Shown here in pieces: positions 49,024-54,650 of a stretch of DNA of 64,000 nt. The notes beneath the pieces were generated by a model. The model was given only the letters and a program-made list of their open reading frames with translations, was not told where the DNA came from and did no database searches. The translations under genes and the position numbers were made by a program. The DNA lies in assembly GCA_043821945.1 (NCBI GenBank), contig JBDRCH010000002.1:141-64140 (forward strand). Reading direction: 5' to 3'. The stretch is from an archaeon (GTDB lineage: Archaea; Nanobdellota; Nanobdellia; Pacearchaeales; GW2011-AR1). How positions within the stretch are numbered: position 1 is the stretch's first letter; each line of letters starts with the position of its first letter.

Positions 49024-49137
49024 AGCCCCATAGTTCAGTGGTCAAGAATACTAGCCTTTGGCGCAAAATGCACGCATCTTGGGTTCATCGCTTTGCGAAG
49101 AAAGCTAGGGACCCAGGTTCGAATCCTGGTGGGGCTA
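49024..49137 (+). tRNA. tRNA-Gln(UUG) with a 41-nt canonical BHB intron (49062..49102)
   Basis: Acceptor AGCCCCA/TGGGGCT (A1:U72), D arm GTTC/GAAT, anticodon stem CTAGC/GCTAG, loop CT-TTG-G...A, T arm CCAGG-TTCGAAT-CCTGG. Intron forms helix-bulge(GGC)-4 bp-bulge(AAA)-helix. No encoded CCA. Confidence 0.8.
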
Positions 49138-51590: not shown

Positions 51591-52415
51591 TTAATCTATT
51601 TTTAAATTGTCTAGAGGGCTTTTAATATTTTCTAAATCTGATTTTGCTATGTGGGTATAGATTTGCGTTGTTCTTAAGTTTTTGTGACCGAGTAGTTTTT
51701 GAATTTTTCTTATGTCAATTCCTGCTTCAAGAAGGTGAGTGGCAAACGAATGCCTTAATACATGGGGGCGTATCTTTCTTTGTAAAACTTTTTTGGAAGA
51801 TTTTTCTATTATTTTTTCAATTGTTTTTGAAGAATATTTTTTATTTCTATTTGATTCAAAAAGATAATTTTTAGGAGATTCTTTTAATAAATGAGTTAAA
51901 AGTTCTTTTTCTAAACTTTTTGGAAAAAGGGTTATCCTGTCTTTTTTCCCTTTTCCTTGACGCACAATTAAGACTTTTCTTTCTATATCTATATCTTTGG
52001 GTTTAAGATTTAGGAGTTCTGAAACTCTTAAGCCTCCTGCATACATTAATTTTATCATAAGCTTATGTTTTTTATTGGTGATTGAATGGATAATTTTTTT
52101 TGTTTGTTCTTTATTTAGAACTTCTGGAATTTTTGACTCTCTTTTGTAATTTGGAAGATCAAATTCTTGAGATTTTCCAAGAAGATTAAATAGTAATTTT
52201 AGGACAGCATATTTTTGTTTTATGTAGCTTGTACTTTGTTTTTTATTAATTGCATTTAAAATATACTCCTTAACATCATTATTTGAGATATTATTAGAAC
52301 TTTTAAGAAAATCACTTATGATTAAATTATATGATTTTATTGTTTTTTGAGAGAAATTATGTAGTTTTAAGTAATTCTCATATTCATTTTTAATAGAACT
52401 TACTTCTTTATTCAT
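51591..52415 (-). CDS. xerA: Tyrosine recombinase, XerA-like
   Basis: 274 aa. GLRVSEL (Arg), HVLRHSFATHLL (HxxR), and LGHKNLRTTQIYTH (catalytic Tyr). Confidence 0.75.
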   Translation of the reverse strand: MNKEVSSIKNEYENYLKLHNFSQKTIKSYNLIISDFLKSSNNISNNDVKEYILNAINKKQSTSYIKQKYAVLKLLFNLLGKSQEFDLPNYKRESKIPEVLNKEQTKKIIHSITNKKHKLMIKLMYAGGLRVSELLNLKPKDIDIERKVLIVRQGKGKKDRITLFPKSLEKELLTHLLKESPKNYLFESNRNKKYSSKTIEKIIEKSSKKVLQRKIRPHVLRHSFATHLLEAGIDIRKIQKLLGHKNLRTTQIYTHIAKSDLENIKSPLDNLKID

Positions 52416-52482
52416 ACATAATATAATGAATAAATCTTTATATAATTTTTGGAAAAGTTCGATTAAAAGTTGTTAGTTTCAA

Positions 52483-52495
52483 TCAGCCGAGGGCA
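52483..52495. repeat. Left arm of a perfect 13-bp GC-rich inverted repeat (tcagccgagggca)
   Basis: Exact reverse complement of 53305..53317. Lies 35 nt upstream of the ORF start at 52531. Confidence 0.9.
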
Positions 52496-52530
52496 CAATG
52501 CTTATATACTTCTTAACTATTTTTTAATTT

Positions 52531-53304
52531 ATGAAGGTTAATTTTTTTGAGGAATTTCCTAATGAGGAAAATTTAGAAAAGCTAAAACTAATAAATTTTC
52601 CATCATTAATCTATGTAGCCGCCAAGTCTTTAGAAGAATTCAATCATATCAAAAAGAAAATCTTAAGTATTAATTCAAAAGTCGAAGTAGGATACTGGCC
52701 AATTCTAGAGAAATCTTATTGGTTTTCGCCATTCTCATACACTTTTGAATTAAAAAAATTATATGATGATTTGCTCAAAAATAAAAAAGATAAATCTCTT
52801 AAAATTTTGATTGATTTAGAACTTCCTTTTTTGAGTCCAAAATTATTTTTTTGGAATCTGTTTTCTTTTTTCAAAAATAAAAAACTTATTAAGAAAATCT
52901 TTACAGATTCAAAAAAATTGAATATCCAAATCTTAACTGCTGAATACCCAATTCCAAGTAAAATAGTTCAAAAGAAATTTGAGTGGCTAGGTGTTTCTTA
53001 TCCTATAAGAAAATATCCCCATAAGAAGATAGTAATGTTTTATTCAAGTATGATTAAAAATAAATTTCTTTTAAAAAAAATAAAACAATATATTACTAAA
53101 CGTTCTTTGGAATTGGGTAAAAATCTTCAGATTGGTTTAGGAACTATTGCGATTGGAATTCTGGGAAATGAACCAATTTTAAAACCTGAAAATTTGGACA
53201 AGGATTTATCTTTTTGTAAAAAAAATAAAATTGATTCTGTAGTAATATTCAGACTTGGCGGCCTTAATAATTTATACCTCAAAAAAATTAAAAAATACTT
53301 ATAA
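52531..53304 (+). CDS. Hypothetical protein bracketed by an inverted repeat
   Basis: 257 aa, Lys-rich, no recognised motifs. The stop codon directly abuts the right repeat arm. Confidence 0.5.
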   Translation: MKVNFFEEFPNEENLEKLKLINFPSLIYVAAKSLEEFNHIKKKILSINSKVEVGYWPILEKSYWFSPFSYTFELKKLYDDLLKNKKDKSLKILIDLELPFLSPKLFFWNLFSFFKNKKLIKKIFTDSKKLNIQILTAEYPIPSKIVQKKFEWLGVSYPIRKYPHKKIVMFYSSMIKNKFLLKKIKQYITKRSLELGKNLQIGLGTIAIGILGNEPILKPENLDKDLSFCKKNKIDSVVIFRLGGLNNLYLKKIKKYL

Positions 53305-53317
53305 TGCCCTCGGCTGA
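53305..53317. repeat. Right arm of the 13-bp inverted repeat (tgccctcggctga)
   Basis: Exact reverse complement of 52483..52495. Confidence 0.9.
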
Positions 53318-53516
53318 CTTTGGATTTTTCCTTCGGAACGTTGCACTAAAATCCAACCCCTCCAAGTATTCGGGGGGAACTAACAGGGCTTAAAGGGTTC
53401 GCTCGTCGGCACGCTGCGCTCTCGCCTATCGGCTCGGGGCAATTAACAGGGCTTATGAGGAAATTTGCGAGCCGAGCAAATTTCCCAAATTTCTTCCGCT
53501 TCGCTCCAGAAACTTT
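53305..53516. ncRNA. GC-rich non-coding island: candidate structured RNA, identity and strand unresolved
   Basis: About 210 nt convergent intergenic region, much more GC-rich than its surroundings (as is the tRNA). Hairpins TTGGATTTT/AAAATCCAA and GGAAATTTGC-gagccga-GCAAATTTCC. Direct repeat aacagggctta x2. No ORF. Confidence 0.35.
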
Positions 53517-54650
53517 TCACAACCCTAATTTTTCAATAAATTTCTTCTTATCAAATACTTCAATATCATCGTATTCTTGACCTATGCCCAAGTAGAGAAT
53601 TGGTTTTTTTGTGATATAACCTACTGATAAAGCTGTTCCTCCTTTTTCGTCGATGTCTGCTTTTGTTAGAATTATCCCATCAATGCCAATGCTCCAGTCA
53701 AAGCTTTTTACTTGTTCAATTGCGTCGTTTCCTGTTAAACTTTCTCCAACATATATTTTTGTGTCTGGTTTTGTTACTTTTGAAATTTTTTCTATTTCTT
53801 TTAATAAATTTTTTGAAGTGTGCATTCTTCCTGCTGTATCAATCAACACACAATTGATAAAATTCTTTTTTGCGTATTTTATTGCATCAAAACCTACTGC
53901 TGCTGGATCAGATCCATATCCTTGTGAAATTACTTTCACATCTAATTTTTCTCCGTGCTTTTTTAATTGTTCAATTGAAGCTGCTCTAAATGTGTCTGCT
54001 GCAGCAAGAACACAAGATATGTTTTGTTTTTTAAGCGATTCTGCAATCTTTGCAAGTGTTGTTGTTTTTCCTGTACCATTTATTCCACAAAATAAAATAA
54101 CATAAGGTTCTTTTGATTCTTTGGATTTTTCTTTTATTTTTTCAACTAAATCAAAAGGTTCAATTAATATCTCATTGATTATTTCTTTAAATAAATCTTT
54201 AATTTCTTCTTCTATTTCTTTTTTTAATAATTCTTTTCCAATTATTTTTTCTTTTAATTCTTGGATCATTTTTTCAGTTACTTCTAATGCAACATTATTC
54301 TCTAAAAGTAACATTTCAAGTTCTTCTGAATAAACTTCGAATTCTTTATCAGTTATTTTTATCTTATTTATTTTTGAAGTAACTTGTTTAAAGAATGATT
54401 TTTTATCTTTTTTAATATCTGAAAGAGTTTCTTTTTTTTCAGAAGAGGAGACCTCTTTTATTAATTTTTCCTCTATTTGTTTTATTTGATCTAAATCTGG
54501 CTCAAATTTAAGGAATCCAACATTATATCTTGTTTGAGGGATTATCTCTTTAGGAACTTCTTCTTCATGTTCTTCATCAAATTTTTCTTCTGATTTTTCA
54601 GATACTTTTTTTGCCCAATTGCTAAGTTTTTCTTTTAGTGATTTAAACAT
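53517..54650 (-). CDS. ftsY: SRP receptor FtsY
   Basis: 377 aa. Acidic N-terminus, NG domain GINGTGKTTT, DTAGR, TKAD. Confidence 0.9.
   Translation of the reverse strand: MFKSLKEKLSNWAKKVSEKSEEKFDEEHEEEVPKEIIPQTRYNVGFLKFEPDLDQIKQIEEKLIKEVSSSEKKETLSDIKKDKKSFFKQVTSKINKIKITDKEFEVYSEELEMLLLENNVALEVTEKMIQELKEKIIGKELLKKEIEEEIKDLFKEIINEILIEPFDLVEKIKEKSKESKEPYVILFCGINGTGKTTTLAKIAESLKKQNISCVLAAADTFRAASIEQLKKHGEKLDVKVISQGYGSDPAAVGFDAIKYAKKNFINCVLIDTAGRMHTSKNLLKEIEKISKVTKPDTKIYVGESLTGNDAIEQVKSFDWSIGIDGIILTKADIDEKGGTALSVGYITKKPILYLGIGQEYDDIEVFDKKKFIEKLGL

Follow-up and report, generated by a model that had tools for sequence, protein, structure and literature searches.

A probable integron-like cassette row linked to a XerA-family recombinase gene in a Pacearchaeales archaeon

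Introduction

Archaeal integrons, as well as clusters of attC sites without an integrase, have already been reported (Ghaly et al. 2022, PMC9668308). The Pacearchaeales and Woesearchaeales genomes covered by that report possess two to four attCs and no IntI (PMC9668308), and these sites were compared with the units presented below by description only. Here, we analyse the region between xerA and ftsY in a 64,000-nucleotide stretch of a Pacearchaeales genome (contig JBDRCH010000002.1; hereafter the window), where the gene for a 257-amino-acid (aa) protein is bracketed by an exact 13-bp inverted repeat and followed by a GC-rich island. This region probably represents a minimal row of an integron-like, site-specific-recombination cassette system linked to a XerA-family recombinase, a reading to which we assign a probability of roughly 70%.

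The locus resembles an integron in its overall plan. In both, the cassette row adjoins a tyrosine recombinase gene that is directed away from it, and a conserved insertion site is located beside the recombinase promoter, the crossover being placed at G↓TT of a GTTA... box (here and below, the arrow marks a presumed crossover or unit boundary). The cassette-borne sites, as read in relatives, would likewise be imperfect hairpins with the order R''(..TAAC)-L''-variable loop-L'-R'(GTTA..), in which structure is conserved more than sequence. Furthermore, the content of the row varies among close relatives, and the cargo is shared across domains.

The other systems that bear comparison rely on Xer-type recombinases. 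In CTX phage and other Xer-exploiting elements, XerCD acts on a folded single-stranded attP at dif. Like the present locus, CTX phage integration involves an enzyme of the Xer family, a core resembling dif and a site that is complete only upon folding of a single strand into a forked hairpin (which is proposed here); CTX-type elements also integrate successively in tandem at one site, as the rows described below would do. It seems, by analogy, to be the nearest mechanistic counterpart for a Xer enzyme operating on a folded single strand. However, CTX is bacterial, employs two recombinases and moves whole phage genomes, whereas the present system is archaeal, has one Xer-type enzyme, carries a single gene and is known from sequence alone. 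The pdif modules of Acinetobacter plasmids are recombined by XerC/XerD at 28-bp duplex sites. As in the window, they are discrete gene modules bounded by Xer-type sites, with the two flanking sites mutually inverted, but they reside on plasmids and possess no folded modules. Finally, the archaeal XerA/dif system of chromosome-dimer resolution (Cortez et al. 2010, PMC2958812) is resembled in a recombinase that passes the XerA model and in a junction that is readable as two imperfectly inverted arms of 11 bp with a 6-bp spacer between them. The classical dif is a single-copy site of the terminus region and is not beside xerA (PMC2958812); in contrast, the sites described here are multiple, occur in rows directly upstream of xerA and bound gene cassettes.

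Results

The 13-mer TCAGCCGAGGGCA is located at 52483-52495 of the window and its exact reverse complement at 53305-53317 (positions in the window refer to the plus strand unless otherwise indicated). These arms enclose the 257-aa open reading frame (ORF; 52531-53304), the right arm starting one base after the stop at 53304, just as was described in the original prediction, which had been made from the letters of the window. With two mismatches allowed, the 13-mer has only these two copies in the window, where 0.14 would be expected by chance. The island that follows (53305-53516) is also as GC-rich and as free of ORFs as had been claimed: its GC fraction amounts to 0.47-0.58 across 53300-53500, compared to approximately 0.28 in the surroundings, and it contains no ORF of 50 aa or more. 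The hairpins noted at the outset (TTGGATTTT/AAAATCCAA, CCCC../GGGG.., and GGAAATTTGC/GCAAATTTCC at 53459-53485) and the direct repeat AACAGGGCTTA (53382-53392 and 53445-53455) are all present, and Pfam searches bear out the assignment of the neighbouring genes to SRP54, FtsY and a tyrosine recombinase. The overall fold energy of the island is ordinary (z = -0.8 and -0.1), and its structure is therefore argued below from covariation and not from energy. The island is composed of two units of a conserved folded element, one with a module termed A and the other with a module termed B. Among the readings put forward in the original prediction, that of a small cassette or mobile unit with terminal inverted repeats beside a tyrosine recombinase agrees in essence with the genome comparisons, while that of an RNA helix split by an ORF-carrying insertion gives way to one in which the arms are two cassette ends. 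The source assembly (G000) comprises 490 kb in 14 contigs and is 78% complete.

Comparison of approximately 17 cassettes from nine loci revealed a rule for such repeats. The 9-15 nt that come after GTTAnnnnCAA have an exact reverse complement 0.5-5.4 kb downstream, and this downstream copy stands directly before the ACTYT start of a folded module ending in ..TAACAG. Viewed from the other end, module-A units with enough flanking sequence have the 9-15 nt 5' of the module matched 0.8-5.4 kb upstream, always right after (G/A)TTAnnnnCAA; the same repeat search, run downstream of module-A units as a control, gave almost no matches. A reverse scan from the GTTAnnnnCAA sites of four rows recovered the same rule for other module types, with ACTYT always following the match. 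GTTAnnnnCAA precedes the repeat in every cassette examined, and the repeat sequence is particular to each cassette, for example TTTTTGAGAATGCC, TTGCAAATTCTC, TTAAATCGGACTTTG and GGACTCTGGGGCAAA. The R' and R'' arms co-vary as well (TTATATTC/GAATATAA), and covariation of the arms among relatives is a feature of the family. Since the rule holds across cassettes, the 13-mer of the window is therefore interpreted as the cassette-specific part of paired, complementary cassette ends.

The folded element is widespread among related archaea. In a DNA search, pieces of the island matched 84 of 201 genomes of the same order, often in several copies on one strand, 0.7-6 kb apart, and the matches split into two separable pieces, module A (53317-53399) and module B (approximately 53410-53519). 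A covariance model of module A matched 114 of 301 genomes sampled across the phylum, with one to six clustered copies in each; all 114 belong to the same class and are spread over many families. Approximately 40% of related genomes carry the element, in cassette rows on one strand that begin next to a gene of the XerA family. Across 43 distinct copies of module A, 96% of the cells are paired, and compensatory changes are observed in 16 of the 17 pairs. The alignment contains 99 double-change cells as against 24 in shuffles (0 of 500 shuffles reach 99), and pairing falls to 63% or less when the partners are slid by one column. In aligned relatives, a conserved 5' module ends in ..GAAACTAACAG and is continued in either of two forms. 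The long form consists of GGGCTTAAAGGG, approximately 90 nt of small hairpins and CCCTTAAGCCC, and is closed by GATGTTAnnnnCAAT; in the short form, the 5' module runs directly into GATTAnnnnCAAT. The loop sequences of the units are also conserved (TCCAAGTATTC, CGTTGCACT). Near-identical units, with more than 200 nt of identical flank, were encountered in five genomes of four genera (G087, G075, G189, G015 and G149; loci L007-L011), which points to recent exchange of whole cassette ends.

The junction beside xerA is fixed and the content beyond it varies. Five genomes possess AAGTTCGATTAAAAG(T/G)TGTTA at a fixed distance from the xerA TATA box; AAGTTCGATTAAAAGKTGTTA is kept beside xerA in all five, with unrelated sequence immediately after. 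Indeed, GTTA is followed by GTTTCAATCAGCC in the window and by TGTGCAATATTAC, TACGCAATTAAAT, AACGAAATTTTTT and TACGCAATTCAAA in the four others. This divergence is probably a trace left by recombination in or next to G↓TTA, which would place the crossover of the window in or next to G52472↓TTA. The conserved, attI-like half of the insertion site, AAGTTCGATTAAAAGTTGTTA (52455-52475), keeps its distance from the xerA TATA box in G239, G241, G112 and G200. It adjoins the recombinase gene and, to judge by the comparison of genomes, would receive cassettes at G↓TT, as an attI-type site does.

In the closest relative, G239, the gene order is srp54 (84%)-xerA (79%)-ftsY (79%)-orf86-apgM, with 8.8 kb between xerA and ftsY compared to 1.1 kb in the window. 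This 8.8-kb stretch harbours at least five long-form units, and further small genes are encoded on either strand; the 257-aa gene has no homologue in it. In another relative (L025, 3380-3620), two tandem, gene-less units of 120 bp, each bounded by ..AACACTGA↓TTATATTCAAT, occupy the insertion site beside xerA; these may be empty cassettes. The attI-like 18-mer was considered as a common motif of the family and rejected, since only 11 of 81 genomes carry it when one mismatch is tolerated; the source genome has three to four occurrences. The conserved left half of the insertion site, AAAAGTTCGATTAAAAGTTGTT, recurs exactly in an intergenic region of that genome (G000:C11:11364-11385, minus strand), and a near copy is situated just past a stop codon (G000:C14:23363-23384). 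Neither a recombinase nor a unit adjoins these copies on contigs 11 and 14, which could be secondary sites or a regulatory motif.

The recombinase gene (51591-52415, minus strand) encodes a 274-aa XerA-family tyrosine recombinase (Pfam Phage_integrase, 1.1e-42) and is transcribed away from the cassette. The protein passes the NCBIfam XerA equivalog NF040815 (230.1 bits, cut-off 220), as do the row-linked homologues in L025 and L027, and it scores below the integron-integrase models (TIGR02249, 176 versus 265 bits; NF011946, 115 versus 435 bits). The matches to these models are split, with approximately 40-45 profile positions unmatched around the region that holds the IntI-specific domain, near patch III. 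Homologues of 42-79% identity head the rows in L024, L025, L027, L028, L031, L032 and L036, and each of the multi-unit loci retrieved has one in this position. Without exception, transcription of these genes leads away from the row, and the polarity of the units is constant relative to the gene. A single full Xer-like gene was found in the source assembly, and likewise one in the near-closed genomes G112 and G037; according to a family-wide search, many relatives carry two to four Xer genes. The same search revealed that many contigs of relatives end 100-250 bp upstream of xerA, as is expected when an assembly meets a region that is repetitive or varies within the population. The source genome also encodes a fragment of 36 residues (G000:C5:18806-18913), possibly left over from a second copy, which shares 58% identity with the recombinase C-terminus.

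Read from its 5' end, the putative cassette begins with the R'-like arm GTTAGTTTCAA (52472-52482), which directly precedes the left arm of the 13-mer and is complementary to GGAACTAAC at 53376-53384. A TATA-like box, GCTTATATAC (52500-52509), stands approximately 26 nt before the ATG in a layout that recurs upstream of the cassette genes of relatives, and is probably the cassette's own promoter. Behind the gene, the right arm runs directly into module A (53317-53385; covariance model R1, 86.3 bits), a two-hairpin fold that ends in CTAACA. Its P1 is formed by TTGGATTTT/AAAATCCAA with an inner TTCC-TTC-GGAA hairpin, and its P2 by CCCC-TCCAAGTATTC-GGGG. The last bases of the module, GGAACTAAC, are complementary to GTTAGTTTC apart from one G-T pair. 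This R''-like arm is followed by AG and the L''-like GGCTTAAAGGG, the three together spanning 53376-53397 and containing the first copy of AACAGGGCTTA. In relatives, GGGCTTAAAGGG pairs with CCCTTAAGCCC, and GATGTTA then follows.

Module B (53398-53442; ..CACGCTGCGCTCTCGCCTATCGGCTCGGGGCAA) is a second type of 5' module, of which stretches are 91-100% identical in many relatives; it is placed identically before TTAACAG in L016, L018, L019 and L025. In the window, it leads to a second R''/L'' half-site, TTAACAG GGCTTATGAGG (53443-53460), and to the variable inner part of unit B (53459-53512), which holds the GGAAATTTGC/GCAAATTTCC hairpin and a further one, TTTCT..GC-TTC-GC..AGAAA (53490-53512). 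Compensated versions of the inner hairpin occur in relatives (GGAAAAATGC/GCATTTTTCC and GAGAAATGGC/GCCATTTCTC), and in the G156 copy (L012) GATTATGAG pairs with CTCATAATC, with GCGATGTTA following. The distal boundary of the variable region (53513-53540), determined by comparison with G239, overlaps the final codons of ftsY (minus strand, 53517-54650), its stop included. An intact 3' half of unit B was ruled out, the sequence there being the conserved ftsY C-terminus. Since TCACAACCCYAATYTTTCAATAAA is conserved as the 3' end of ftsY in G239, where it is not beside a unit, the 3' half of unit B is therefore at best degenerate.

Profile searches assigned the cargo protein to no Pfam or NCBIfam family. 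It has at least 471 homologues, in DPANN archaea and Patescibacteria-type bacteria, and AlphaFold confidently predicts a (beta/alpha)8 or TIM barrel (predicted local distance difference test score, pLDDT, 94.9). The best structural matches of this fold are the C-terminal glycoside hydrolase domain of PgaB, Cwp19, SleL and GH18/GH20 enzymes, with template-modelling (TM) scores of approximately 0.6, and the conserved columns of the family are E7, E8, D95, E97, N116 and R241. A role as polysaccharide hydrolase is plausible but conjectural. A 257-aa ORF located beside a unit in G071 was considered as a homologue and proved to be unrelated.

The closest homologues of the cargo gene (88-89% amino-acid and 88-90% nucleotide identity) are on bacterial contigs that carry dnaG of the bacterial type, rpoD, obg and DUF5671/DUF5652 genes, and that probably belong to ultra-small bacteria resembling those of the candidate phyla radiation (CPR). 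The similarity to the bacterial copies extends approximately 70 nt upstream, covering the promoter region and a GTTAGTTYC arm (72%). The nearest archaeal copy, at 81% nucleotide identity, continues into TGCCCTCGCTGA, module A and CTAACAA↓TAGTTATGTCTAAT. These comparisons show a recent transfer of the cargo gene across domains; they are no proof that such a cassette system operates in the bacteria. The bacterial copies are found between rpoD and obg, in a variable stretch with its own, different repeats, and retention of the bracketing inverted repeat around them was ruled out. On CPR-like contigs (L041, 3500-5000; L042/L076, with L076 6900-13900), this rpoD-obg stretch differs in gene content between two close relatives and is punctuated by repeats of approximately 100 nt ending in GGTTCTAAC-ATT-GTTCACGATACGGAGC, followed by a terminator-like hairpin. 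No recombinase was found within 10 kb of the stretch, which may be a separate cassette-like region in ultra-small bacteria.

The original prediction had also entertained a structured RNA gene, with the signal recognition particle (SRP) RNA as an attractive candidate between srp54 and ftsY. At Rfam gathering thresholds, the sole match in the window is an intron-containing tRNA at 49024-49137 (57.7 bits with the tRNA model; missed by ARAGORN), and a permissive scan of 52380-53620 on both strands, with E-values up to 10, returned only noise. Archaeal SRP RNA (RF01857) has no match in the island on either strand, and a candidate is present elsewhere in the genome at G000:C8:2044-2306 (64 bits, E 8e-15); this candidate remains below the Rfam gathering score of 96.5 bits, is divergent and would be missed by standard annotation. 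RNase P RNA (RF00373) is likewise without a match in the island, and is found on another contig at G000:C4:2506-2808 (136 bits, above cut-off). A tRNA, split tRNA or intron-containing tRNA in the island was also rejected, as ARAGORN found none, the tRNA model did not match and the flanks of the arms are not tRNA-like. A processing stem of the bulge-helix-bulge (BHB) type around the ORF does not fit the geometry (a 13-bp helix, AA opposite a 62-nt branch, and a 9-bp helix), and a match to group II intron D1-D4 at E 0.6 was dismissed as noise. Among 19 unit-bearing loci of relatives, no Rfam family was detected in any.

Discussion

The anatomy of the cassette, the covariation across the family, the organisation in rows, the linkage and orientation relative to xerA, the variable content of the locus and the spread of the cargo across domains are observations; what we infer is which enzyme acts, at which base the crossover falls and that the reactive form is a folded single strand. 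According to this proposal, the cassette would extend from T52473 (TTAGTTTCAA and the left arm) through the promoter, the 257-aa gene, the right arm and module A to GGAACTAACAG at approximately 53386. The ends of this segment are complementary over approximately 25 nt, TTAGTTTC with GGAACTAA and 13-mer with 13-mer, and in a circular or single-strand looped-out cassette they would pair into a long stem, on which module A would form a side branch. Such a structure would amount to a recombination site made by folding, much like an integron attC or the attP of CTX phage in its folded single-stranded form, and the adjacent Xer-type enzyme would recombine it with the conserved AAGTTCGATTAAAAGTTG↓TTA beside its own promoter. 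A circular cassette would carry the end junction ..GGAACTAACAG-(N)-TTAGTTTCAATCAGCC.. The rest of the island, with module B, TTAACAG and the hairpins, is a second unit that abuts the ftsY stop and would be either a remnant or the terminal site of the row. When the ends of the cassette are joined and modelled with DNA parameters, the predicted fold has an energy of -29 kcal/mol, compared to -13 to -14 kcal/mol with the start of another cassette; it consists of an outer stem of 13 bp, both module-A hairpins and a hairpin of AACTAA/TTAGTT.

Strong covariation in three helices, conserved loop sequences, GC-rich islands that resemble tRNA in their GC content, and the lack of an annotation or Rfam family for the units would also be in keeping with small structured non-coding RNA (ncRNA) genes of approximately 70-200 nt, several per genome, in which case the 13-mer would be a long-range RNA pairing or an mRNA processing stem. 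We consider such RNA genes improbable. RNA helices usually tolerate G-U pairs and one-sided changes, whereas both are almost absent from module A (4 G-U cells among approximately 690 pairs). On the strand shown, the hairpins are closed by triloops, not UUCG tetraloops, with C-TTC-G occurring 50 times, T-TGC-A 14 times and C-TAC-G six times, as against two cases of C-GAA-G. While these loops are unremarkable for RNA, those of the complementary strand are GAA, GCA and GTA, and so belong to the GNA triloops, of which the highly stable mini-hairpin d(GCGAAGC) is an example in DNA. Furthermore, the units mark the exact points of sequence divergence between genomes, their cassette-specific repeats are up to 5.4 kb apart, and they form tandem rows tied to a recombinase gene, with a polarity that follows xerA whatever the orientation of the neighbouring genes, the cargo being on either strand. 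The near absence of G-U pairs, the GNA triloops of the complementary strand and the xerA-bound polarity favour folded DNA over RNA.

If the units are DNA sites, they might still be ordinary duplex dif-like sites (arm, 6-bp spacer, arm) used by XerA, with no single-strand folding and with hairpins and repeats that are accessory or incidental. This explanation agrees with ours on the cassettes and the recombinase, the reactive form of the DNA being the sole point of difference. The left junction, TCGATTAAAAG-TTGTTA-GTTTCAATCAG, has an 11-6-11 layout with arms complementary at 7 of 11 positions, the divergence between genomes begins exactly after the 6-bp spacer, the short-form junctions (GAAACTAA-CARNGA-TTAGTTTC) are simple palindromic cores, and XerA of Pyrococcus abyssi recombines duplex dif without partners (PMC2958812). 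However, the module-side arm has only 8 bp before module A interrupts it, reaching full length only if the module loops out, and the loops are strand-asymmetric. In addition, covariation extends past the arms into the cassette-specific repeats, a finding that implies selection for pairing. We regard a purely duplex reaction as rather unlikely, if less so than RNA genes, and retain it as a serious alternative. Far less plausible is a transposon or MITE (miniature transposable element of the inverted-repeat type) with terminal inverted repeats, a passenger gene and a transposase encoded elsewhere: although a perfect 13-bp inverted repeat does bracket a single gene with homologues in many different contexts, there is no target-site duplication (the flanks are AAAAGTTG on the left and CAGGGCTT on the right), no transposase is present nearby according to the window ORFs and Pfam, the units are arranged head to tail at one locus beside a tyrosine recombinase, and the subterminal repeat differs among cassettes while the outer arm is constant. 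We would give just as little credence to an invertible segment, a phase-variation switch that the neighbouring recombinase flips between the inverted arms. Relatives hold different cassettes at this position and not one cassette in two orientations, and consecutive short-form sites in rows are direct repeats, even if inverted repeats flank a promoter and a gene beside a tyrosine recombinase and the junction spacers TTGTTA and TAACAG are mutually inverted. Since the segment holds both promoter and gene, its flipping would therefore change nothing obvious.

The integron-like cassette row that we prefer has evidence to contend with in its turn. The recombinase is devoid of the IntI-specific extra domain, for which its 274 aa leave no room. 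Unit A of the window is without an L'-GATGTTA half of its own and the 3' half of unit B is degenerate, and the row may therefore be partly decayed and immobile. The extended stem cannot form locally when the cassette is integrated, and the folding model therefore needs a single-stranded or circular intermediate. Finally, the recombination of cassettes is itself deduced from the comparison of genomes.

Compared to integrons, the system also has peculiarities of its own. The attC-type order and pairing (RYYYAAC for R'' and GTTRRRY for R' in integrons) are found in relatives (ACTTAAC..GTTAAGA, GTTTAAC..GTTAAAC, and GGGCTTAAAGGG/CCCTTAAGCCC), but with shorter spacers, extra modules and a longer stem. 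The spacers between R and L boxes measure 2-3 nt as opposed to approximately 5 nt, and additional, conserved modules (A, B and others) are present on the 5' side of the units. The complementarity continues for 9-15 nt beyond R''/R', in cassette-specific repeats that the whole integrated cassette separates. The enzyme is of the XerA type and falls below the integron-integrase cut-off, and the cassettes are self-promoted and occur in either orientation (on both strands in G239, G149 and others), unlike the promoterless, co-oriented cassettes that integrons express from a common promoter Pc.

Conclusions

The units described here should not be annotated as RNA genes; in the metagenome-assembled genomes concerned, they indicate hypervariable loci and places where assemblies break. 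A bolder and decidedly tentative idea is that the class of the Pacearchaeales and Woesearchaeales might run a previously undescribed gene-capture platform, in which a XerA-type enzyme that has no IntI domain would insert and remove self-promoted single-gene cassettes at sites completed only by the folding of one DNA strand. The cassettes would move back and forth between these archaea and co-occurring CPR-like bacteria, as is suggested by the copy of the cargo gene and upstream arm, roughly 90% identical, on bacterial contigs. In such a platform, the cassette-specific terminal repeat would provide the stem, and modules A, B and others the branches. If the adjacent Xer-type enzyme does move these cassettes, integron-like gene capture would have emerged or survived in archaea with reduced genomes on the basis of another recombinase. 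The cassette-specific stem, the conserved branch modules and the GNA-triloop mini-hairpins would then be a new example of structure-specific DNA recombination sites. For the organisms themselves, which have genomes of approximately 0.5-1 Mb and depend on other cells, the locus would be a hot spot of gene exchange, and it would offer a concrete, testable route of gene flow between DPANN archaea and CPR bacteria.

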